Numbered from the stretch's first letter, positions 9,824-40,008 are shown. The stretch is DNA of 41,914 bases from a bacterium (GCA_043812555.1 JBDRLZ010000010.1:1-41914), one strand, 5' to 3'. Notes: a model not told the origin generated them from the sequence alone. Made by a program: numbers and translations.

Positions 9824-11302
9824 TTAATAGTTTTTAATAATTTCTCTTAGAGCTTCTAATAGTTCTTGTTGGGTGGTGCATGTCCTCGCGGTTGTTCCAA
9901 TATTAATTGGATAAAGTGTAGCAATGCGCGCATGTCCTTCTTTGATAAATGCTTTGGCGGCGGCGGCGGCTTTTGCATTTGAAGCACCGCCTGCTACTGC
10001 AGAACCAGTATTAATATCAGGCAATAAATCAGCAGGGACTTTTCCTTCGTGTTCTCCGGCCAAAAAATTAACTTTAGCGCTCTTGGCTCGTTTTTGAGCT
10101 TGTGTTCCTCCTAGTTTATTAACCAGTGGAATTCTTCCAAGCGTTGCGCCGACTGCCGCGTCTCGCATGTAAGATAATCTTGTGCCTAATTTAGCCGCGG
10201 CGCCTGCTTCTTTGCCCTTTGCTCTAGCCGCTTTATAAGATTTTATAGCTTCTTGGACAGAAGTGTACCCGCTTGCTTTTTTCAACCCGGCTTGGGCCAT
10301 GCCGTAAATTTTTGCTCCGCCTTGCACTCCAAATTGCTTAGCCATAAGCAAACCGCCCAAAGTAAAGCCCAAAACCAGAATATATTGAATCAAATTATTG
10401 CCTGTTGAAAAAAACGACGAAACAGACGATTGCAAATTCGGAGCGGCAGTGCCTAAAGAATTTTTAAAGCTGTCAAAGCTGTCAGCTGTGCGCATAGCCA
10501 AGTACAAGAAAAAAGCAAAAGCCGGGGTAAATAATGCCCAGCTGATTAAACTTTTCCACCACTGCCCCCAATACTTTTCTGCTCCGGGAATAACCCGGCA
10601 TAAAAAGGCGGCCGGCGCGAAAATAGCCACAAAAGACAGAACAATTGCTCTGACAACAAGCAGCCCCGCTGCCAGCCAAATAACGATTAATGTCGCTAGC
10701 AAAACAACCACGCCCATAATCATATTGATTAAAAAATTTAGCGCTATATTTCCCGCGCTAACATTATTTCCAGCGGCTTGCCAAACCTTAGCAACGCCCA
10801 AACTGCCGACTAATTTTTGCGACATCTCCCAGTTGCCGACTCCTGATTGTTCAACAAAAAACTTAGTGAACAAATAACTCATGTCTAAGACAACATTAAC
10901 CAAAAGCATGCTGAAATTAACCAAAAGCGCGATAATAACCAGATTAACAAAAAGTTTTTTAGCGCCGTATTTCTCAATGCCTAAAATTGTTGAAATAGCA
11001 ATTGTTAATAATATAAAAATAAAGCTGATATTGGCAAGGTCGCGGATTATTTTCCAGCCCTCTGTAATAATCGGCAGATCGGTAATTTTCCAGCTTAAGA
11101 GCCAATCAAAAAGCGCGCCGCCAATATAAATGCCAAGACTTAATAATTGCATTATTAGCCAGACTATCCAGCCGAGAGTTGCGGTTAATGCTCCAGCAGT
11201 TACCGTGTCCCAGAAACCAGCTTGAGCTCTCGGCAGAAAAACAACAAAAATCAAACCTAAAGTCAGAGTTAAGATAAGAGTAAGTTTTTGATGTTTGGTC
11301 AT
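9824..11302 (-). CDS. VirB6/TrbL-like polytopic membrane protein
   Basis: 492 aa with a signal-like N-terminus, at least 6 TM helices and an Ala/Gly/Lys-rich C-terminal tail. Its position in a VirB4/PrgI locus supports the call. Confidence 0.6.
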   Translation of the reverse strand: MTKHQKLTLILTLTLGLIFVVFLPRAQAGFWDTVTAGALTATLGWIVWLIMQLLSLGIYIGGALFDWLLSWKITDLPIITEGWKIIRDLANISFIFILLTIAISTILGIEKYGAKKLFVNLVIIALLVNFSMLLVNVVLDMSYLFTKFFVEQSGVGNWEMSQKLVGSLGVAKVWQAAGNNVSAGNIALNFLINMIMGVVVLLATLIVIWLAAGLLVVRAIVLSFVAIFAPAAFLCRVIPGAEKYWGQWWKSLISWALFTPAFAFFLYLAMRTADSFDSFKNSLGTAAPNLQSSVSSFFSTGNNLIQYILVLGFTLGGLLMAKQFGVQGGAKIYGMAQAGLKKASGYTSVQEAIKSYKAARAKGKEAGAAAKLGTRLSYMRDAAVGATLGRIPLVNKLGGTQAQKRAKSAKVNFLAGEHEGKVPADLLPDINTGSAVAGGASNAKAAAAAKAFIKEGHARIATLYPINIGTTARTCTTQQELLEALREIIKNY

Positions 11303-30732: not shown

Positions 30733-30763
30733 TGTGTTTAAGCTGTTGATGAAATGTGAATAA
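30733..30763. promoter_or_regulatory. two relaxed DnaA-box-like 9-mers upstream of dnaA
   Basis: TGTGAATAA (30755-30763, reverse complement TTATTCACA) fits TTATNCACA. TGTGTTTAA (30733-30741) has one mismatch. Confidence 0.3.
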
Positions 30764-30784
30764 GGCCGTTAGATGGCTAAAACA

Positions 30785-30820
30785 CTTTACAAATTTAATG
30801 AGGTATGGTAGGGTGAAAAT
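30785..30820 (+). promoter_or_regulatory. promoter/operator-like element, copy 1 (TTTACA-17-TAGGGT with TGn extension)
   Basis: CTTTACAAATTTaatgAGGTaTGGTAGGGTGAAAAT. 31 of 36 nt are identical to 36383-36418. Confidence 0.55.
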
Positions 30821-30887
30821 GCTAGTATTTGCTAGCGTTTTTAAATTTCAGCAGTTCTTTGAAAACTTAAAAAGGGAGGTTGTGGAA

Positions 30888-31850
30888 GTGCTTTATTCAG
30901 ACGAACAAAGGTTTTGCAGTTATTGTATTAATCCGGCAGATTTAGGAGTTTTAAACCCAACCACAGGCAAGATATTAAATTTCCATTCTGGTAATGACGA
31001 TTTATTTTGTGAAATTTGTTATGAGATATTTAGAGATAATAAATTTCCAGAAAGGTCGTATTTTGACCAGGAATGGAATGATTATTTGTCAGCTCGTCCC
31101 AAATTATTATTTGCTTATTCTGGTGGCTTGGATAGCACCGTAGTTTTAGCTCTTCTGGTAGAGTCGTGCAGGCAAAAAAATATTGATTTGGAAATATTCA
31201 CTATCAAAACTGGGGTTAAGGGGAGCAAAACTCATAATAATATTGATGCTGTGCTTAATTGGCTTAATATAAGAGATAATCATTTTTATGTTGATATTCA
31301 AGATGAAAATCAAGACAGTGGGGTTTCAACATTGAATGTTTATTTGCAATGCTTTAAAGCAGGCATATTGCCTTGCGGCAAGATATGCAATTCAATAATA
31401 GACCATGTATATCAGAGTATAATGCAAGAGCGCGGACATAAAGAGTTGATAACTGGCGGAGACACTCCAAAGCTTAATAAATTCAGAAAATATTCTTTAT
31501 TTTGGGAAAAATCAAATGGATTGGTTGTTGTTCGAGGGGGCTATGCGTTTAATCTTTCAAAAAAGTTTAACAGAGACTTTGTTGAAGAGCATAATATTCC
31601 GTGGATTAATCCTGAATGCGGCGGATATGACACTGATTGTTTGGTGCCAGGAGCTTTTTTTAGGAGAAAACTGCAAGGAAATAGAAAGATTTCTCTAAAA
31701 AAAGTGATTTCTGAATTTCCAATTATTTTGGATTATTTAGCGGAAAGGGCGAGATTTGGAGTTTATGATCGAAATGAAGCTTTATTTTTACTGACCCATG
31801 TTGATATTGCGAGCCTGTCCTCATATGAGGAATTTAATCAGATATCTTAA
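30888..31850 (+). CDS. PP-loop (adenine nucleotide alpha-hydrolase) ATPase with an N-terminal CxxC...CxxC zinc ribbon
   Basis: SGGLDST PP-loop, N-terminal CSYC-x27-CEIC and an internal PCGKICNS. I chose GTG 30888 as the start because AGGGAGG lies 8 nt upstream. In-frame ATG 30819 and GTG 30756 are alternatives. Confidence 0.75.
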   Translation: MLYSDEQRFCSYCINPADLGVLNPTTGKILNFHSGNDDLFCEICYEIFRDNKFPERSYFDQEWNDYLSARPKLLFAYSGGLDSTVVLALLVESCRQKNIDLEIFTIKTGVKGSKTHNNIDAVLNWLNIRDNHFYVDIQDENQDSGVSTLNVYLQCFKAGILPCGKICNSIIDHVYQSIMQERGHKELITGGDTPKLNKFRKYSLFWEKSNGLVVVRGGYAFNLSKKFNRDFVEEHNIPWINPECGGYDTDCLVPGAFFRRKLQGNRKISLKKVISEFPIILDYLAERARFGVYDRNEALFLLTHVDIASLSSYEEFNQIS

Positions 31851-31864
31851 AGGAGTTGATATTA

Positions 31865-33115
31865 ATGGAAGCAAAGCTGTTGCATCATCTAGGCGTTCCT
31901 TGCATTGCTTCAATAAGAGATTTTGATAAAAATCCATATCAAGAAGATAAAATTTTTTATCTAAACCCCGAAGCTATCATTCGGTATGAACCAGAAGGAG
32001 CAACAATAATACCGCCAATGTTCTATTCTTCTTTTCTTTGGGTTGATGAAGATTTGGCAAATTTATTAAAAAGAAAAGGAGTTCAAGCAAAAGGTGTTCC
32101 ACGGGGAGCAATTTCTCTTTTACTAGAAAACAAGGTTATTTTAGAGAATCAATCCAGTAGGTCATTTAGAGAATTTCATGTTGATGTCAGTGGTTTACCA
32201 ACGCAAGTCCTTCTTGATGTCACTTCTGCATGCACTTGCAACTGCGTTGCCTGTTATCATACTAAGGATTTAATCGGGCATATGCCCTCTATTGAAGACC
32301 TTAAAAGAAGAATCGCAAAGCTAAGGCAGTTAGGGTTAGGATTATTTGAGGTTACGGGCGGAGAGCCATTTCTCAGAGATGATTTGAATTTAATACTAAG
32401 TTATATTTATGATCTGGGATTGCATTTCTATGTGGTCACAAACGGCGAATTATTAACCAGCATAAAGCCAGAAATGATTAATATTTTAAAGCGCGGCTTG
32501 GGAGTTGCAGTTAGCTTGGACGGAGTCGGGGCTTTGCATGACGGCATCAGACAAAATCCTGGTTTGTATGATAAACTAATAAGAGGTTTGGACTTGCTTT
32601 TTTTAGAAGGAATACAAATTTATTTAATTTCAACTATTAATGAGATTAATATAGGTTGTATTTCAGAAATGATACAAGTTGCCAAGAAATACGAAACAAC
32701 ACTGCATATCCGTCCGACTATCAGGACTGGGAACGCATTGATTAATAATTTAGGAAGTGTTGATTTGCGGGAGCAACTCCAGCCATTTTTAAGAGACGAG
32801 AATGTTAGAAATGGTTTGCTTAGCACTAAAAAAAGCATACCGCTAGCCAAGTATTATGGTTGTGGTATAAGAAAGAGAATTTCTGTCAACAGCAAAGGAT
32901 TGCTATATCCTTGTGTTATGGACAGAGATAGCAGTTGTGATAATATTAAAAATTACACAAGAGAAAATTTAGTAAAAACTTTAAAAACCGAAACAAGCTA
33001 TTTTCTTGATGCACACAATAAATGCCGAGAATGTGGGGTGAACCAAAAACAAGATATAGTTTGCGGAGGATTTTGCAGGTTTTCTAATTCTTATGCAAAA
33101 GGAATAAAGCCATGA
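31865..33115 (+). CDS. radical SAM/SPASM peptide-maturase-like enzyme 1, with a ~110-aa N-terminal extension (possible fused RRE)
   Basis: CTCNCVAC (CxxxCxxC). C-terminal Cys motifs (GCGIRKRISVNSKGLLYPC...CRECG...CGGFC). Start at ATG 31865, 9 nt after AAGGAG. Confidence 0.85.
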   Translation: MEAKLLHHLGVPCIASIRDFDKNPYQEDKIFYLNPEAIIRYEPEGATIIPPMFYSSFLWVDEDLANLLKRKGVQAKGVPRGAISLLLENKVILENQSSRSFREFHVDVSGLPTQVLLDVTSACTCNCVACYHTKDLIGHMPSIEDLKRRIAKLRQLGLGLFEVTGGEPFLRDDLNLILSYIYDLGLHFYVVTNGELLTSIKPEMINILKRGLGVAVSLDGVGALHDGIRQNPGLYDKLIRGLDLLFLEGIQIYLISTINEINIGCISEMIQVAKKYETTLHIRPTIRTGNALINNLGSVDLREQLQPFLRDENVRNGLLSTKKSIPLAKYYGCGIRKRISVNSKGLLYPCVMDRDSSCDNIKNYTRENLVKTLKTETSYFLDAHNKCRECGVNQKQDIVCGGFCRFSNSYAKGIKP

Positions 33116-33873
33116 AAGACAGAAATACAACTCAACAAAACAACTACCATGTAATTGCTCGTTTTTATGACGACTTAATGGGTGAGAAAAAATATTTAAT
33201 TTGGGGTGATATAATTGCAGATGTTGTCGCAAAATATAAAATTCCAAAAGGTATTTGTATTGATGTTGCTTGCGGAACAGGCAACATCTCTCAAATATTG
33301 TTAAAGCAAGGATTTGCAGTCGTGGGAGTTGACAGGTCAAAGTACATGCTAGCGATAGCTAAAAAAAAATTACCTCAAGTTGATTTTGTATGTTCAGATA
33401 TTCGCGATTTTGAATTAAAACAGAAGAATGAGGTGGTATTTGCGGTCTCTTTTTATGACTCTTTGAATTATTTGCTGACAGATAAAGATATACTATCTGC
33501 TTTTCAGGCTATTGCTAGAAATATGCCTTCAGGAACTATTTTTCTGTTTGATATGAACACGAGAGAGCACATACTGGTCTCTCAAAAGAATAAACCAAGA
33601 GTGTTTGAATATGATGATTTTTATTCTATCTTTCGCTTTGGCGGAGAAAATCGGATTTGGACGATTGATATGGATTTTTTCATCAAACAGCCTGATGGCA
33701 AATTTCAGCTAATTAAAGAACATCACAAAGAGAGAGCTTATGATGAAAAAGACACGACTCCCTTGTTTCAGAAAGTTGGCTTTGAATTACTAGAAGTTCG
33801 TAGTGAAAACAAGGTCTATGAGGATGGTAAAGAACATTTAAGTAGATTATATTTTATTGTTAAGAGGAGGTGA
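33112..33873 (+). CDS. class I SAM-dependent methyltransferase 1
   Basis: Motif I CIDVACGTGNIS and post-I VVGVDRS. ATGA overlap with the upstream gene. Confidence 0.85.
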   Translation: MKDRNTTQQNNYHVIARFYDDLMGEKKYLIWGDIIADVVAKYKIPKGICIDVACGTGNISQILLKQGFAVVGVDRSKYMLAIAKKKLPQVDFVCSDIRDFELKQKNEVVFAVSFYDSLNYLLTDKDILSAFQAIARNMPSGTIFLFDMNTREHILVSQKNKPRVFEYDDFYSIFRFGGENRIWTIDMDFFIKQPDGKFQLIKEHHKERAYDEKDTTPLFQKVGFELLEVRSENKVYEDGKEHLSRLYFIVKRR

Positions 33874-33878
33874 TATAA

Positions 33879-34007
33879 TTGAAAATCCGACAGTCAAAAA
33901 AGGCAGTCAACAAGCAGAATGTTAACAAAGCAAAACTTAAGCAGGTTAACTGGAAGATGTCGGTAGCAAACTTTTTAAAGAACGGGTGTTTAATAAACGG
34001 AGATTAA
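33879..34007 (+). CDS. candidate RiPP precursor peptide (42 aa, TTG start), absent from the supplied ORF track
   Basis: AGGAGGTGA sits 5-8 nt upstream of TTG 33879. Translation: (M)KIRQSKKAVNKQNVNKAKLKQVNWKMSVANFLKNGCLINGD. The N-terminal part is Lys-rich and leader-like, and a single Cys lies near the C-terminus. A hairpin terminator follows. Confidence 0.5.
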   Translation: MKIRQSKKAVNKQNVNKAKLKQVNWKMSVANFLKNGCLINGD

Positions 34008-34034
34008 AAATAAATCTGTTCTTTAAAAAATAAT

Positions 34035-34081
34035 CAGCCTTTCTGTTGTAGTAAATTAAGCAGAAAGGCTGTCCTTATTTT
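34035..34081 (+). terminator. intra-operon rho-independent terminator/attenuator after the small ORF
   Basis: CAGCCTTTCTG (34035-34045) pairs perfectly with CAGAAAGGCTG (34061-34071). TCCTTATTTT follows. Confidence 0.7.
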
Positions 34082-34096
34082 AGGGAGGCGAATAAA

Positions 34097-34318
34097 ATGC
34101 TTAACCCAAGAGTTAGCTTTGCAGAGAAAAACGGAGTTTGTGCTATTTATTTAGACTTTGATTTTTGGTTTTTGTGGGATGAGCCAGCAATTTGGTTTAA
34201 AAAAATCGCTGAGTCTCCTACAACTACAACATTGTCTAATTCTGATATCCCAGACGACTTTATGGAGTTTCTAAAAACAAATCAAATCTTGATTAAGGAG
34301 ATGATCCAAGATGTTTGA
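34097..34318 (+). CDS. PqqD-like small protein (candidate stand-alone RiPP recognition element)
   Basis: 73 aa with AGGGAGG 8 nt upstream. The pattern RVSFAEKNGVCAIYLDFDFWFLWDEPAIWFKKI resembles the PqqD beta-strand/helix core. Overlaps the next rSAM gene by 8 nt. Confidence 0.55.
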   Translation: MLNPRVSFAEKNGVCAIYLDFDFWFLWDEPAIWFKKIAESPTTTTLSNSDIPDDFMEFLKTNQILIKEMIQDV

Positions 34319-35384
34319 TATGTGCGGATTCAGCTATAATGAATTATTCAATCTGGCTGTTTCCAAGCCAATGATGGCACAGATTAAGCTGACTGATAAC
34401 TGCGAGCAGAATTGTATTTTCTGCATGGCTAGTTGCGATTCTAAAAAGCAAGCAATTGATATGCCCGCTAAAAACTGGTTTAAAATTCTTCTAAAACTGA
34501 AAAACTTAGGAGTGAGCAAGTTGAATTTTACTGGCGGGGAAGTTTTTCTGTATAGCGAAGTCGCAAAGGTATTTGCTTTTGCAAAAGAACAGGGTTTTGT
34601 TATTAGCCCAAGCTCTGATGGATTAACTAGCGTCGTTAAATTTAAAGGTTACATTGATGAAATTTCGTTTTCGGTTCACGGTACAGGCGAAATTCATGAC
34701 AACGTGGTCAGTTGCGAGGGGTCTTTTGAAAAAGTTGCAAAACATATTCAAGAAGCAATTAATTTGGGAATCAGGGTATCGCTGAACACTGTTTTGGCAA
34801 AAGATAATTATAATTACTTTGAAGATGTTTACGACTACTTCAAGGATTTAGGCATTTCTTTTCACTCATTTCCTATTGCAATTAATGCTATTAGCGGTAT
34901 TGATTGCGGTTCGCAGATATTGGATTTAGACAGAGGATTGTTTCTGGACTATTTGGATAAACTAAGAAAGATGTTGCCTGAAAGACTTTCTTGCAAGCAC
35001 GGCCTTGGTGTGATTATGCAAAATAATCCTGAATATTATCAAGAAACAAGAGTGCCATTGCCTGATTGTGCTGGAGGAAAATATAAGCTGGTGATTGAAG
35101 CCGACGGCAGTGTTTATCCATGTAATTTTTTCAGAACGCAAAATTATTATTGTGGAAATATTTTGTATGATAATGAGTTTGAGATTTGGCGTAAAGGCAG
35201 GGGATTTCAGTCTTTTAGAAGATTGATATTAGAAGAAAAAATTCCAAGCAAATGCCGAAGCTGCATTAAAAAATATAAATGCTTTTCTGGATGCAGAGCT
35301 TGGATCCAGAATTACCGACAGGGAGGGTTTTACAATGAAGCAGATTTGCGATGCGAACTTGGGAATGCATATGTTGGAACTTGA
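34311..35384 (+). CDS. radical SAM/SPASM enzyme 2
   Basis: CEQNCIFC cluster. SPASM motif CAGGKYKLVIEADGSVYPC...CRSCIKKYKCFSGC. Confidence 0.88.
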   Translation: MFDMCGFSYNELFNLAVSKPMMAQIKLTDNCEQNCIFCMASCDSKKQAIDMPAKNWFKILLKLKNLGVSKLNFTGGEVFLYSEVAKVFAFAKEQGFVISPSSDGLTSVVKFKGYIDEISFSVHGTGEIHDNVVSCEGSFEKVAKHIQEAINLGIRVSLNTVLAKDNYNYFEDVYDYFKDLGISFHSFPIAINAISGIDCGSQILDLDRGLFLDYLDKLRKMLPERLSCKHGLGVIMQNNPEYYQETRVPLPDCAGGKYKLVIEADGSVYPCNFFRTQNYYCGNILYDNEFEIWRKGRGFQSFRRLILEEKIPSKCRSCIKKYKCFSGCRAWIQNYRQGGFYNEADLRCELGNAYVGT

Positions 35385-36318
35385 AATAACTCACAGGTGC
35401 AATTTGGATTGCAAGATGTGCTATATTTCTGAAAAACGCCAAGTAGATATGCCAACAGAAACTATTAAGCAACTAATTAATTTCGCATTTAAAAATAATG
35501 TTGCCTATTTAGTTATTACTGGTGGCGAAGCTCTTTTGCATCCTGAATTTCCTGAATTATCTAAATATCTTCAGGGTTTAAAAATTAATAGCGCGACAAG
35601 AGTTGTCTTGCATTCAAACAGCATTTTAATTGACGACAATACACTACCGCTGTTAAAGCCTTTTGGCTTAATTCATTTAAGCTTTGATTTAGTGGATTTT
35701 TTGAGAAAAGAGATTAGCCATGTTTTAGATAAGGCTAATCTCTTGAAAGAAGCTGGAATTAATTGTTATCTTTTTGCAACTATCCACAAATGTAATATGC
35801 ATTTGATTGATGAAATAATACAGACATCTCAAAACGAGAAAATAGACCTTGGCTTAAATGTTATGCAACCGAATACTAGAAGTATTGATTATGCTTTATC
35901 TAAACCCGAGTTTTGGCAAGTGAGCAAAAAAATATTTGAGCTAGAAAAACAAGGCTTAATATTGCGCTACACTTGTCCATTGACAGCTATACTGGCAAAT
36001 AAAAAATTAAAAAATTACGGTGGGGTCCAGGGCGGATGCACAGCAGGCATTGCTTCTTGCTCTGTGCTTCCAAATGGCGAAGTTGTGCCGTGCCCATTTT
36101 TTAGAATTCCTGCAGGGAATATTGCAAACGACAGATTAGAAAATATTTGGCTTAAAAGTGATTTATTTGCGGTTTTACGAAACCGGCCTGAATACGCAGA
36201 ACCCTGCGGTTCTTGTGAATATTTATCATTCTGCGGAGGTTGCAGAAGCCGTGCTTATAAAGCACGCGAATCACTTACAGCATGCGACCCAATGTGCCCT
36301 TTTGTTGCGGAGGGATAA
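35335..36318 (+). CDS. radical SAM/SPASM enzyme 3
   Basis: CNLDCKMC cluster. SPASM motif GCTAGIASCSVLPNGEVVPC...CGSCEYLSFCGGC. The start may be Met 35365 or 35371. Overlaps enzyme 2. Confidence 0.88.
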   Translation: MKQICDANLGMHMLELEITHRCNLDCKMCYISEKRQVDMPTETIKQLINFAFKNNVAYLVITGGEALLHPEFPELSKYLQGLKINSATRVVLHSNSILIDDNTLPLLKPFGLIHLSFDLVDFLRKEISHVLDKANLLKEAGINCYLFATIHKCNMHLIDEIIQTSQNEKIDLGLNVMQPNTRSIDYALSKPEFWQVSKKIFELEKQGLILRYTCPLTAILANKKLKNYGGVQGGCTAGIASCSVLPNGEVVPCPFFRIPAGNIANDRLENIWLKSDLFAVLRNRPEYAEPCGSCEYLSFCGGCRSRAYKARESLTACDPMCPFVAEG

Positions 36319-36382
36319 AAGATTAAAAAAACAAACTACTCAGAGTAAAAATTGGCTTTGGGTGGTTTTTTCTTTGACAACC

Positions 36383-36418
36383 CTTTACAAATTTTCCTAG
36401 GTGTGGTAGGGTGAAAAT
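36383..36418 (+). promoter_or_regulatory. promoter/operator-like element, copy 2
   Basis: CTTTACAAATTTtcctAGGTgTGGTAGGGTGAAAAT has the same geometry as copy 1. It lies ~65 nt upstream of the SD-supported ATG 36483. Confidence 0.55.
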
Positions 36419-36482
36419 AAGAGTGAACGTTGAAAATAAAACTTGTGTACTTGGAAAATTCAATATAAAAGGAGGATTTAGA

Positions 36483-37310
36483 ATGTATGCTGATGTTGAT
36501 GCTTTAATAAGGCCCATCCCAGCAGACAAGGAGTTAGAACTACATCCAACAAAGCAAAAATTATTCCAATTATGGGAAGAATATGGCAAGATTAATTACA
36601 ATAATTGGTATAAACTTAGTTTTTTCAAAGAGATTAAAAAAACTCTTGAAGGGATGTTTGTTCCGGTTGGAAACGGCGGGAGTGTGCTGGATGCCGGGTG
36701 CGGACCAGGCACAATGTTCGAGTCTATTTTGAATAAAATGTGGCCGAGAACATTGGTCGGTGCTGATATTTCAAACACTATGCTTAGAAAGGCTGAAAAA
36801 ACAGCGAGAGAGCTGATAAGTCCTCACCTAAAAGTGTTTGACATCAAGAAAATTGATCTAACCGAAACATTGCCATGGGAAGATGACGAATTTGATGCTA
36901 TTGTGTCAAACATCGTGATTTATTACTTGACTGATCCGGGCTGGTCTCATGCAGTTCGCGAGTTTTGCCGCGTCACAAAACATGGAGGACATATTTATGT
37001 TTCCACTCTTTTAGAGGGATGCGATCAGACCGCTCTTATTAAAGAGAATAAATGGAAACTAGAGACGCTTTTTGGCTCGCCCTTTGGATTTATTAATCTT
37101 TTATGGGCGCTAAGACACAAAAAATATCCTGCAATGATCAATGAATGCGCTAAAGAAGCCGGTGTGCGCTATCCAAGCCGTGAAGGACTGTTGAGTCTGT
37201 TAAAAAAGTCAGGAGTAGACGAGATTGTCACCAGAGATATTTTTTGGGGAGCGGGCATAGCTGTCAAAGCTAAGATGAGCAAAATCGCAACAAATTATCG
37301 GCTGAGATAA
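36483..37310 (+). CDS. class I SAM-dependent methyltransferase 2
   Basis: Motif I VLDAGCGPGTM. Start at ATG 36483, 7 nt after AAGGAGG. The ORF-track GTG 36411 lies inside the putative -10 element. Confidence 0.8.
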   Translation: MYADVDALIRPIPADKELELHPTKQKLFQLWEEYGKINYNNWYKLSFFKEIKKTLEGMFVPVGNGGSVLDAGCGPGTMFESILNKMWPRTLVGADISNTMLRKAEKTARELISPHLKVFDIKKIDLTETLPWEDDEFDAIVSNIVIYYLTDPGWSHAVREFCRVTKHGGHIYVSTLLEGCDQTALIKENKWKLETLFGSPFGFINLLWALRHKKYPAMINECAKEAGVRYPSREGLLSLLKKSGVDEIVTRDIFWGAGIAVKAKMSKIATNYRLR

Positions 37311-37341
37311 AATCAACCTATCTCAGCCTTTTCTTTTTTTT
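37300..37341 (+). terminator. rho-independent terminator closing the cluster
   Basis: GGCTGAGATA (37300-37309) pairs with TATCTCAGCC (37319-37328). TTTTCTTTTTTTT follows. Confidence 0.8.
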
Positions 37342-37367: not shown

Positions 37368-39560
37368 ATGGATATTAAGGCTATAATTATATTAGTTGCC
37401 TTTGCTAACCTATTTTTGGGAGGGCTTTTATTTTTCAGAAGCAAAAGAAAAATAACAAACACAGCCTTTGCTTTTGTACCAATCTCTCTCGGTATGTGGT
37501 CTTTTACTTTATATTTTTACGAACGCCCAGTTGTATTTTCAAGCTTTATCTGGATTAAGATTGTTTATTCGATCGTTTTAATCGCTTTTATTCCAAGCTA
37601 TTTCTATTTTGCTTTAATCTTCCCAGAACCGCCAAAACAGAAAAGAAAAGTTTTTTTGCCGATGGCAAGTTATTGCACCTTATCATTGGTTTTTCTTTAT
37701 ATTCTCTGGTTTACTGATTTATGGATTAAAGATGTAATAAAAATTTCCGGACAAGTGGAAACAATTTTGGGCCCGGCTTATTTGTTTTTTTGTATTTTCG
37801 CTAGTTTATTCGGTTTTGCATGGTTTATCGCAATTCTAATCAAAAAATATTTTAAAGCAAAGGGTATTTTAAAAATGCAGCTACGTTATATTTTTGTCGG
37901 GCTTTTCCTCTGCCTTGTTTTTGTAATAATTTTGGACGCAATATTACCTTTGGCCGCAAACAATACCAGATATTTTTGGCTCAGCACTTGCGGCTCTTTA
38001 TTCGCCGTTGCGGCTACAATTTACGCAATCACTCGCTACCGCCTAATGGATGTCCGCTTGATACTTCAAAGAAGCGGGGTTTTTCTGCTGGCTTTAAGTA
38101 TTGTTGTCGGCTTGACTATTTCCTCAATATGGCTAATGGCTCATTTGATGAATTACAGCCCAAATCCAGTTCTGATGATTGGCGGGGCAATGGCCATGGC
38201 TTTAACTATCGCCTTGTTTGTGCCGCTCCGTTCCCGGCTTCAAAAATTAGCTGATAAATTGTTTTTCAAAAAAATTATTTCTTACCAACAAACCCTCAAA
38301 AAAATCTCTGATAAACTCTTAACCATTATTGATCTTGATAAACTGATAAGCTTGCTTGTTGAAACAACCAAAAACACCATGGGCTTGGAAAGAGCTGGGG
38401 TATTATTAAGAGATAATCAAACTAGCCAGTTTAAGATTCAGAAAATCATTGGTTTTAAAGAAGAGAACGGCATTTCTCTGGTCAGAGACAACTTTTTGAC
38501 AGAGCATCTGCAGAAAACAAAAAAGCCGCTTGTTTATGAAGAATTAAAACTGATGATTAGAGATGCGCTAGATGAGCAAATCAGAAATAGCCTTGTTAAT
38601 TTAAGAGATAATATGAAGCGGATTGAGGCAGTACTCTGTCTACCCTTAATTGTCAAAGATAAACTCGAGGGCCTCGTTGTTTTGGGCCGAAAACTATCAG
38701 AAGATGCTTATTCAAGAGAAGATCTAGAAATTCTTGAAATCTTAGCCAATCAAACCTCAATTGCTATAGAAAATGCCCGGCTCTATGCCGAAGTCAATGA
38801 TTTAAAAGAGAATCTTGAAGGGAAAGTTGCTGAGCAGACCAAAAGCATTACCGAGCTCCTGGGTATGAAAACCGAACTCTTGAATACCATTTCCCATCAA
38901 CTGCGCACGCCAACAACTATTTTTAGAAGTATGTTATCAATGATCAGCGAGGGCGATGTGGCTGGAGCGCAGAAAGAACAATTTATCAAAGACTCTTATG
39001 CAGCAGCTAACAGATTATTGTTAATTGTTGACTCAATTATGGAAGCCTCAACTTTTGAAGGCAAACTGCCTGATTTTGAGTTTAAAGCCGCTCAAGTTGA
39101 TGATATTATTCATCAGTCAATGAAGATATTTGAAGTCATTGCCAAAGCTAAGAGAATTGATTTAGCATATCAGAAATCAAAAGAACCCTTGCCAACCATT
39201 ATGGCTGACGAGAATTATCTTAAATCAGCTTTAAACAAACTTATTGACAATGCTATCTGGTATACCAAAGAAAAAGGCAAGGTCACAATCTCAACTGAAC
39301 ATAATAAACAAGGCAAGACAATCTCAATTAAAGTCCAAGACACTGGCATTGGTCTAACCCAAGAAGACAAAGACATTCTCTTCCAGAAGTTCAAAAGAGG
39401 CCGCGGCTCAAAAACAATGAATGTCAACTCATCAGGTTTAAGTCTCTTTATTGCCAAATCAATTGTTGAAGGCCACAAAGGCACAATCCAAGCCAAATCC
39501 GAAGGCGAAGACAGGGGGTCAACTTTTACAATGACTATCCCTGTGTTACAGGAGATCTAA
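37368..39560 (+). CDS. membrane sensor histidine kinase (polytopic N-domain, GAF, HisKA, HATPase_c)
   Basis: About 7 TM helices. GAF-like region (...LCLPLIVKDKLEGLVVLGRK...). H-box ISHQLRTPTT, N-box LIDNAIWYT and G-boxes QDTGIGL / SSGLSLFIAK. Confidence 0.88.
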   Translation: MDIKAIIILVAFANLFLGGLLFFRSKRKITNTAFAFVPISLGMWSFTLYFYERPVVFSSFIWIKIVYSIVLIAFIPSYFYFALIFPEPPKQKRKVFLPMASYCTLSLVFLYILWFTDLWIKDVIKISGQVETILGPAYLFFCIFASLFGFAWFIAILIKKYFKAKGILKMQLRYIFVGLFLCLVFVIILDAILPLAANNTRYFWLSTCGSLFAVAATIYAITRYRLMDVRLILQRSGVFLLALSIVVGLTISSIWLMAHLMNYSPNPVLMIGGAMAMALTIALFVPLRSRLQKLADKLFFKKIISYQQTLKKISDKLLTIIDLDKLISLLVETTKNTMGLERAGVLLRDNQTSQFKIQKIIGFKEENGISLVRDNFLTEHLQKTKKPLVYEELKLMIRDALDEQIRNSLVNLRDNMKRIEAVLCLPLIVKDKLEGLVVLGRKLSEDAYSREDLEILEILANQTSIAIENARLYAEVNDLKENLEGKVAEQTKSITELLGMKTELLNTISHQLRTPTTIFRSMLSMISEGDVAGAQKEQFIKDSYAAANRLLLIVDSIMEASTFEGKLPDFEFKAAQVDDIIHQSMKIFEVIAKAKRIDLAYQKSKEPLPTIMADENYLKSALNKLIDNAIWYTKEKGKVTISTEHNKQGKTISIKVQDTGIGLTQEDKDILFQKFKRGRGSKTMNVNSSGLSLFIAKSIVEGHKGTIQAKSEGEDRGSTFTMTIPVLQEI

Positions 39561-39595: not shown

Positions 39596-39730
39596 ATGAA
39601 AAGAACTTATCAGCCAAAAAAGAGAAAAAGAAAGAGAGAGCACGGGTTTATGGCTCGGAAGAGAACTAAGCCAGGCCGCCGCGTTTTAAAGAGGCGAAGA
39701 GCTAAAGGCAGGAAGAAATTAACTGTTTAG
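39596..39730 (+). CDS. rpmH: 50S ribosomal protein L34, absent from the supplied ORF track
   Basis: Translation: [44 protein letters not shown], a canonical L34 sequence. It precedes rnpA. Confidence 0.92.
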
Positions 39731-39732
39731 TT

Positions 39733-40008
39733 ATGCCTGATTTTCTTTATCTAAAATACAAGCCAAACACTCTCCAGGAAAACCGATTTCGTATAATCGT
39801 GAGTTTAAAAGTTTCTAAAAAAGCTGTTATCCGCAATAAAATCAGGCGGCGAATTAAAGAAATTTTGCGTCAGCTTGAATTGAAGACTGGCTATGATATA
39901 GTTGTTATTACTAATAAAGAGATTATTAACAAGAGCTTTAGAGAGATCAAAGAAAAAATCTTGTTTTTGTTAAGACAAAAGACATTGATGTTTGACATCA
40001 AACAATAA
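39733..40008 (+). CDS. rnpA: ribonuclease P protein component
   Basis: RNR-type motif (AVIRNKIRRRIKE). 91 aa. Directly downstream of rpmH. Confidence 0.85.
   Translation: MPDFLYLKYKPNTLQENRFRIIVSLKVSKKAVIRNKIRRRIKEILRQLELKTGYDIVVITNKEIINKSFREIKEKILFLLRQKTLMFDIKQ

Follow-up and report, generated by a model that had tools for sequence, protein, structure and literature searches.

The window analysed here, a 41,914-nt stretch of bacterial DNA (GCA_043812555.1, JBDRLZ010000010.1:1-41914), carries a short open reading frame (ORF) at positions 33879–34007 of the plus strand which, with a probability of roughly 85%, encodes the ribosomal precursor peptide of an uncharacterised radical S-adenosylmethionine (rSAM) pathway found mainly in Patescibacteria and resembling those of RiPPs, peptides that are synthesised ribosomally and modified after translation. 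An initial annotation of the window had proposed this small gene as a candidate precursor for the adjacent rSAM-SPASM enzymes, and the proposal is supported by the conservation of the peptide, by the synteny of the locus and by the Shine–Dalgarno (SD) sequence in front of it. The ORF is co-oriented with, and lies 5' of, the genes at 34097–34318, 34311–35384 and 35335–36318 (all +), which encode a 73-aa protein with a predicted RiPP recognition element (RRE) fold and two rSAM-SPASM enzymes.

Translation of the peptide would begin at TTG 33879, 5 nt past the stop of a gene for a 253-aa methyltransferase, via an AGGAGG SD (33865–33870, +) that is located 8 nt 5' of the start and abuts the methyltransferase TGA (33871–33873). 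The frame contains 42 codons plus a stop (33879–34007, +; product MKIRQSKKAVNKQNVNKAKLKQVNWKMSVANFLKNGCLINGD), and the TTG is its sole in-frame start 5' of the invariant Trp25. In the closest relatives, loci L001 and L007, AGGAGG is also followed by a TTG start 8–9 nt on. The SD, the TTG and the 42-codon frame all lie where the initial annotation had placed them, with the same translation, and the strong AGGAGG upstream of the TTG supplies the translation signal on which that proposal depended. The earlier remark that the ORF had been overlooked by gene calling was also borne out, as the window peptide is absent from the protein database searched, where its rSAM and 73-aa neighbours are present.

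A hidden Markov model (HMM) of 68 database peptides, from which the window peptide was excluded, matched ORF 33879–34007 with 47.1 bits (E = 1.8e-13), and the ORF was the sole match among the 1633 stop-to-stop segments of the window. The shortness of the ORF, its TTG start and its absence from the gene calls of the contig might suggest that the frame is open by chance within AT-rich intergenic DNA, where the terminator hairpin of the upstream methyltransferase operon would be the only functional element. This explanation is refuted, and its probability is close to nil: besides the HMM match, it is opposed by the conservation of the protein at loci with enzymes of only 35–45% identity, and by the strong SD at the correct spacing. 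ORF 33879–34007 is a real, conserved and formerly uncalled gene.

Homologues of the 357-aa rSAM enzyme were obtained from Patescibacteria metagenome bins, and their contigs were fetched for locus comparison (loci are numbered with the prefix L). The tBLASTn and HMM comparison of rSAM neighbourhoods recommended in the initial annotation revealed a small ORF in the same slot at 22/22 non-redundant related loci, and no locus with enough upstream DNA was without it. The C-terminus of the peptide in these loci follows the pattern W-x-M-x-[VI]-x-x-[FV]-x-x-x-G-C-x-x-N-x-[DN]-stop, and this block is kept even where the enzymes share only 35–45% identity with those of the window. In its narrower form, the motif reads W-x-M-x-[VI]-x-x-[FV]-x-x-N-G-C-[LM]-[IV]-N-x-[DN]. 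In the window, the conserved block comprises 18 codons (W25–D42; 33951–34004, +), with the TGT codon of Cys37 at 33987–33989. An alignment of 18 peptides showed no indels within the block, W25, M27, G36, C37 and N40 were found to be invariant, and the peptide always ends two residues past N40. The shortest family members are 22 aa long, and conservation is limited to 18 residues. When 5.8 billion proteins were searched with a profile, 68 further peptide clusters were added, all unnamed or 'hypothetical' and none with a Pfam domain; the Trp, Met, Gly, Cys and Asn (position −2) were each present in 68/68 of these database peptides.

The nucleotide sequence behind the invariant residues is not fixed: Gly36 is encoded by four codons, Cys37 by two and Asn40 by two. 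Pairwise differences at codon positions 1, 2 and 3 numbered 1135, 756 and 1749, respectively, the third position being the most variable, and the peptide genes of the window and L025 differ by nine synonymous and four non-synonymous codons. The codon turnover and the excess of third-position changes indicate that selection acts on the protein in this frame; thus, what is kept is the protein and not merely the DNA, and the opposite outcome would, according to the initial annotation, have refuted the proposal. None of the Pfam or NCBIfam models matched the peptide (for NCBIfam, none even at E ≤ 10), and no description of the peptide family or its motif was found in the literature. A pattern-limited scan of one genome per species, queried with an alignment of the 357-aa rSAM, matched 18 species-level genomes; an earlier scan with a single rSAM sequence as a query had given no matches.

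The association between the peptide and the enzymes was also examined from the side of the peptide. Three look-ups seeded with the peptide rather than with an enzyme landed, in 3/3 cases, in the same seven-gene module. When all 8292 stop-to-stop segments of 18–100 aa from 22 non-redundant loci were clustered, the two most widely shared small-ORF families were found at 22/22 loci (peptide) and 21/22 loci (73-aa protein), and every other 'family' proved to be an off-frame shadow of the large rSAM genes. The clustering thus revealed no competing conserved small ORF of the kind that the initial annotation had allowed for. A second conserved small ORF 3' of the rSAM genes was considered and rejected, the ORFs called there being unrelated to each other. 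Moreover, none of the gaps between the module genes reaches 100 nt, so that a further precursor candidate could not be accommodated in the window.

The peptide, the 73-aa protein and two consecutive rSAM-SPASM enzymes form a minimal module that is strictly syntenic. The first enzyme (357 aa; 34311–35384, +) has Pfam Radical_SAM and SPASM domains, a CxxxCxxC motif from residue 31 and eight Cys residues that are invariant in the alignment of its SPASM region. Its best NCBIfam match is PqqE (82 bits vs. a cut-off of 381), and its best PDB match is PqqE as well (6c8v). The second enzyme (327 aa; 35335–36318, +) has its CxxxCxxC from residue 22, and its gene is always found directly 3' of the first in related loci. 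Neither of these short enzymes has a fused N-terminal domain; with CxxxCxxC motifs starting at residues 22–31, they have no recognition domain of their own. The nearest solved relatives of both are the peptide-modifying rSAM-SPASM enzymes PqqE, SkfB, SuiB and CteB.

The gene for the 73-aa protein (34097–34318, +) starts with ATG 34097, is preceded by the new SD noted in the initial annotation (GGGAGG, 34083–34088), and shares its last 8 nt with the start of the next gene. A word-indexed search yielded three homologues of the protein, and an exhaustive phmmer search yielded 19. AlphaFold prediction from the single sequence was poor (pLDDT, a per-residue confidence score, 52), whereas AlphaFold2 with a 21-sequence alignment reached a pLDDT of 82. 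In the resulting model, three strands are followed by a helix and, after a loop, by a second and final helix, with residues 41–50 poorly modelled (pLDDT 56). The ten best Foldseek matches of this model in the PDB are all RRE-containing RiPP proteins, including the PbtF RRE, ThcOx, leader-bound TbiB1, McbB and a lasso B1 protein, followed by MccB and LynD; TbiB1 matched with a TM score of 0.67–0.70 and a Foldseek probability of up to 0.99. Based on these models, an RRE fold of the 73-aa protein is well indicated but not proven.

The strict co-inheritance of the peptide with the enzymes, together with a highly conserved C-terminus such as would be expected of a protein–protein interface and the absence of a protease or exporter from the Patescibacteria module, would also fit an unmodified small protein that serves the rSAM enzymes as a subunit, scaffold or chaperone and is not their substrate. 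This is very improbable. The shortest family members, at 22 aa, are conserved over 18 residues only, the neighbouring protein is predicted to have a fold that binds precursor peptides in all solved examples, and the order peptide, putative RRE protein, rSAM-SPASM enzyme is that known from the pyrroloquinoline quinone (PQQ) and mycofactocin pathways. A substrate peptide remains the preferred reading, in which one segment of the peptide would be recognised and another modified.

The segment preceding the invariant Trp varies in length between 4 (L014, MNENWQMDVQEFEEAGCAVNSD) and 44 residues and in net charge between −6 and +11. The Lys-rich leader described in the initial annotation is, hence, not conserved, since both length and charge of the N-terminus vary widely across the family; the Lys-rich stretch of the window peptide is a lineage feature common to some relatives. 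The core, formerly placed at about residues 27–42, does lie within the conserved block, but the block really starts at W25, and not at S28, and spans residues 25–42 (W-x-M-x-V-x-x-F-x-x-N-G-C-L-I-N-x-D), and its N-terminal half may with equal likelihood be the recognition element or belong to the core. Leader peptides in the solved RRE complexes are bound as an additional β-strand of the RRE sheet. W-x-M-x-V-x-x-F shows the alternating hydrophobic pattern of a β-strand, and W25-x-M27-x-V29-x-x-F32 is probably the segment bound by the putative RRE protein. The following N-G-C-L-I-N-x-D/N, at a fixed distance to the stop codon, is a candidate site of the chemistry.

Between the peptide gene and the gene for the 73-aa protein lies a terminator-like hairpin with an interrupted T-rich tail, TCCTTATTTT (34035–34081, +; stem 34035–34047/34059–34071). 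As previously described, a perfect 11-bp stem (34035–34045/34061–34071) with a T-tract is found 27 nt past the peptide stop, and RNAfold extends this stem to 13 bp. The 96-nt hairpin region folds with −28.4 kcal/mol (z = −5.3), and 0/200 shuffled sequences fold as well. The window contains a single copy of the inverted repeat, and 100 shuffles contain none; the possibility that the hairpin is a repeated element was rejected, as it is unique in the window. Its absence from the consensus terminator scan is explained by a loop larger than the 8-nt limit of that scan. Rfam analysis of positions 33600–34400 detected no known RNA, and the only match, to a microRNA, was below the threshold and attributable to chance.

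A hairpin with a T-tract was found at the equivalent position in 13/19 loci, with stem sequences that are unrelated across clades. One compensatory change was observed in the stem: the window and L001 have CAGCCTTTCTG, while L007 has CAGCCCTTC..., with the 3' arm changed to match. The other six of the 19 loci have no strong stem, five of them (L020–L022, L025 and L026) having only 5–23 nt in this place and L023 having 68 nt with a weak fold. The hairpin for which the initial annotation suggested attenuation is therefore a recurrent feature and not an obligatory one. It is probably an attenuator, frequent but optional, that separates the peptide gene from those of the enzymes. The hairpin and T-tract would act as a leaky terminator, so that the precursor message would exceed the enzyme message, and transcripts reading through it would run on to a second terminator-like hairpin, followed by TTTTCTTT (36333–36368, +), which is the probable end of the operon.

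The same stable hairpin and T-tract 27 nt past the stop might instead point to a regulatory leader or ribosome-arrest peptide, similar to TnaC or SecM, by which the hairpin and the expression of the rSAM genes would be controlled. A conserved block at a fixed distance from the stop codon would suit such a role, as would a weak outer helix in the predicted fold, which pairs the post-stop region with the SD of the 73-aa gene. However, the peptide is equally conserved at the hairpin-less loci with gaps of 5–23 nt, and its invariant residues (W, M, G, C and N) show no C-terminal clustering but extend across 16 positions. In addition, a predicted RRE-fold protein and two rSAM-SPASM enzymes without an RRE need a peptide substrate, and there is no other conserved small ORF to provide it. 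A regulatory leader is thus highly improbable.

In the favoured model of a precursor peptide, the putative RRE protein of 73 aa would bind the peptide, probably via W25-x-M27-x-V29-x-x-F32, and would present the C-terminal N-G-C-L-I-N-x-D to the two rSAM-SPASM enzymes. These would act by hydrogen abstraction and introduce one or two cross-links, or radical modifications of another kind. In the peptide, a single invariant Cys is followed three residues on by an invariant Asn, and the most likely modification would be a thioether from Cys37 to a nearby carbon, with Asn40 or Asp/Asn42 as candidate acceptors. The methyltransferase, a PP-loop enzyme and a third rSAM enzyme encoded upstream would tailor the product further.

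Several results weigh against this model. No rSAM enzyme of the module reaches the cut-off of any curated NCBIfam maturase model; the peptide has only one Cys; its hypervariable N-terminus and invariant C-terminus are the reverse of what is seen in most antimicrobial RiPPs; the conserved Patescibacteria module contains no protease, exporter/transporter or immunity gene; and a strong stem is missing at the six loci listed above. The assignment of the 73-aa protein is opposed by Foldseek E-values that are all 0.17 or worse, as expected for so small a domain, and by sequence comparisons: the 73-aa family gave no match to Pfam, including PF05402, at E ≤ 10 (19 members) or to the PqqD and MftB models of NCBIfam at E ≤ 1 (21 members), its profile found no PqqD among PDB sequences, and hhalign showed no relationship to a PqqD-fused rSAM enzyme. 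The name 'PqqD-like', used for this protein in the initial annotation, thus applies to the fold predicted by AlphaFold2 and Foldseek but not to the sequence.

In the window and most Patescibacteria loci, the minimal module is preceded by three further genes, which together with it constitute the full module. The minimal module alone occurs in the closest relatives L001 and L007, with a different methyltransferase at the 5' side, and, according to tblastn synteny, in the Firmicute-labelled loci L014–L018 and L024. The first gene of the full module encodes a PP-loop ATP-pyrophosphatase-like protein (364 aa; 30756–31850, +) with SGGLDS at residue 122 and two CxxC pairs (54/57 and 85/88). Its PP-loop matches are below the Pfam cut-offs, and it has no sequence relative in the PDB. 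The gene is found with 38–52% identity in 11 rSAM-seeded loci, and in the three peptide-seeded loci its slot is occupied by a gene of ~335 aa without a Pfam match. Judging by its motifs, this protein is a putative, uncharacterised adenylating enzyme conserved in the full module.

The second gene encodes the third rSAM enzyme (419 aa; 31856–33115, +), with CxxxCxxC from residue 126 and a Cys-rich C-terminus. It belongs to the full module of 12 rSAM-seeded loci, and the three peptide-seeded loci have a Radical_SAM gene of ~420 aa in its place. The N-terminal ~115 aa of this enzyme (31856–32200) could be aligned with the 73-aa family by hhalign (E = 4.9e-4; probability, 32%; 67 columns), and both share an L-N-P motif at the start and an I/V-P...L-L-x-x-x-x-I-L helix at the end, which suggests that this region is probably a fused RRE-like paralogue of the 73-aa protein. 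The third gene, a putative accessory tailoring gene of the full module, codes for the SAM-dependent methyltransferase (253 aa; 33112–33873, +; Pfam Methyltransf_25/11), which is located directly 5' of the peptide gene in 14 rSAM-seeded loci (38–57% identity); a methyltransferase of ~250 aa occupies this slot in the three peptide-seeded loci.

Downstream of the module, the window encodes a 299-aa methyltransferase, a 7TM-GAF histidine kinase and rpmH-rnpA. The 299-aa methyltransferase (36411–37339, GTG start) was rejected as a member of the module, as no homologue was found at any related locus; a hairpin with a T-tract of its own was observed at 37289–37339, and the gene is probably a separate transcription unit. 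The histidine kinase was likewise rejected as a member of the conserved module, HK730-like matches being found downstream in L023 only. Sensor histidine kinases adjoin the module at three loci (window, 37368–39560; L023, 9148–15044; L030, 557–2386); that of the window has the architecture 7TM-GAF-HisKA, and several similar genes follow the module directly in L023. The proximity of the kinases to the module could be due to chance or to a regulatory link. The rpmH and rnpA genes follow the kinase (39596–40008), which places the cluster near the usual chromosomal origin region.

Across Patescibacteria, the module sits among varied housekeeping genes, such as those for ribosomal proteins (L008), tRNA synthetases (L029) and rnpA (window), and a tblastn search of PLSDB plasmids with the rSAM enzyme returned no match at 1e-20. 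L024 (3690–11723), from a Butyrivibrio-labelled metagenome-assembled genome (MAG), contains a minimal module with an HTH_3+TPR regulator upstream and an exporter of the major facilitator superfamily (MFS) downstream, along with a MobA/VirD2 relaxase, a resolvase-type helix-turn-helix (HTH) protein and a phage-type integrase; this setting suggests a mobile element and an exported product, and it adds to the case for a precursor peptide. In L030, the opposite strand carries a stand-alone Peptidase_C39 gene (10634–11188), 2.3 kb downstream of the module. Double-glycine leaders are the usual substrates of C39 domains, but the peptide family has no conserved Gly-Gly site.

Loci L005, L006 and L007 represent one population with identical first rSAM genes. 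A 120-nt deletion in L006 (3868–3993, compared with L007 375–521) removes the conserved peptide core, and L005 and L007, in which the peptide is kept, have Gln123 changed to a stop in the second rSAM-SPASM gene (L007 1850–2839). The pathway therefore appears to be decaying in two ways within this population. Taken together, the varied positions of the module in Patescibacteria, the context of L024, this decay and the 18 species matched in the pattern-limited scan speak for a peptide that is accessory and possibly secreted, rather than for an essential cofactor.

It is nevertheless conceivable, although unlikely, that the peptide is the precursor of a peptide-derived small molecule or cofactor, by analogy with the logic of PQQ and mycofactocin. 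The case for it lies in the tiny precursor, the C-terminal core, which is invariant and keeps its distance from the stop codon, the discrete predicted RRE protein, and rSAM-SPASM enzymes that are not accompanied by a dedicated protease, exporter or immunity gene. If this were true, the pathway would be the first of its kind in the metabolically reduced Patescibacteria. The genomes of this group (the candidate phyla radiation) are very small, and few biosynthetic gene clusters, or none, are usually reported for them. In a long-read MAG study, the Patescibacteria MAGs were stated to contain no such clusters (PMC11613949). The present analysis reveals a radical-SAM peptide pathway of four to seven genes, with up to three rSAM enzymes, that recurs in many Patescibacteria genomes. 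In the compendium of RRE-associated rSAM enzymes, the set with discrete RREs was collected from neighbours of PF05402 and from RRE-Finder scores (PMC10288494); the 73-aa recognition protein would escape genome mining based on PF05402. The invariant 18-residue block represents a defined, testable substrate for the rSAM enzymes, and as the core is conserved and the N-terminus variable, one may ask if the product serves as a shared signal or a cofactor and not as a diversifying antibiotic.

Among the known systems, that of PQQ is similar in having a very small precursor (down to 22 aa in the present family), whose conserved part spans most of the minimal peptide, and a discrete small putative peptide-binding protein beside an rSAM-SPASM enzyme without an RRE of its own. 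PqqE is also the best NCBIfam match of the first rSAM-SPASM enzyme and the best PDB match of both. However, the window peptide does not contain the Glu-x-x-x-Tyr motif of PqqA, the PqqE model (TIGR02109) gives 82 bits vs. a cut-off of 381, and the 73-aa protein is unmatched by PqqD models. Furthermore, the module has no pqqB or pqqC homologues, and two or three rSAM enzymes are found in place of one.

The order of peptide, putative RRE protein and rSAM-SPASM enzyme is shared with mycofactocin (MftA, MftB, MftC), as are the variable N-terminus of the precursor and an invariant, Gly-Cys-containing C-terminus at a fixed distance to the stop. The C-terminal motif of MftA is I-D-G-x-C-G-V-Y, whereas that of the present family is N-G-C-L-I-N-x-[DN] (NGCLINGD in the window). 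The MftC model (TIGR03962) reaches 72.9 bits vs. a cut-off of 265, and equivalents of MftD/E/F are missing from the module. In having a conserved core and a variable N-terminus, the family resembles PqqA and MftA more closely than the diversifying antimicrobial RiPPs.

With sactipeptides and ranthipeptides (subtilosin SboA/AlbA, freyrasin PapA/PapB), the system has in common an rSAM-SPASM enzyme beside a peptide with Cys, a possible thioether acceptor (Asp/Asn) close to this Cys, and a hairpin between the precursor and maturase genes, which has been described for several operons of these classes. It differs in having a single Cys instead of several, in the predicted RRE being a separate protein for the two core enzymes, and in the conserved core and hypervariable N-terminus, by which the usual pattern is reversed. 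The maturase models also remain far below their cut-offs (StsB, 72.5 vs. 625 bits; SkfB, 53 vs. 300; AlbA, 62 vs. 850; PapB, 43 vs. 340).

Structurally, the AlphaFold model of the 73-aa protein comes closest (TM, 0.67–0.70) to stand-alone RREs of the TbiB1 and PbtF type, small winged-helix proteins that bind the leader as an added β-strand. The 73-aa protein is shorter, has no detectable sequence similarity to them, and its partners are rSAM enzymes and not lasso proteases or cyclases. Streptococcal rSAM precursors of the NxxC group are defined by an Asn-x-x-Cys motif, whereas the present peptides contain N-G-C and C-x-x-N and never a conserved N-x-x-C. As the rSAM enzymes are below all maturase cut-offs, their chemistry is not transferable from a known enzyme. 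The system is likely to work in the manner of a PQQ-, mycofactocin- or ranthipeptide-type pathway, but it is a member of none of those families.

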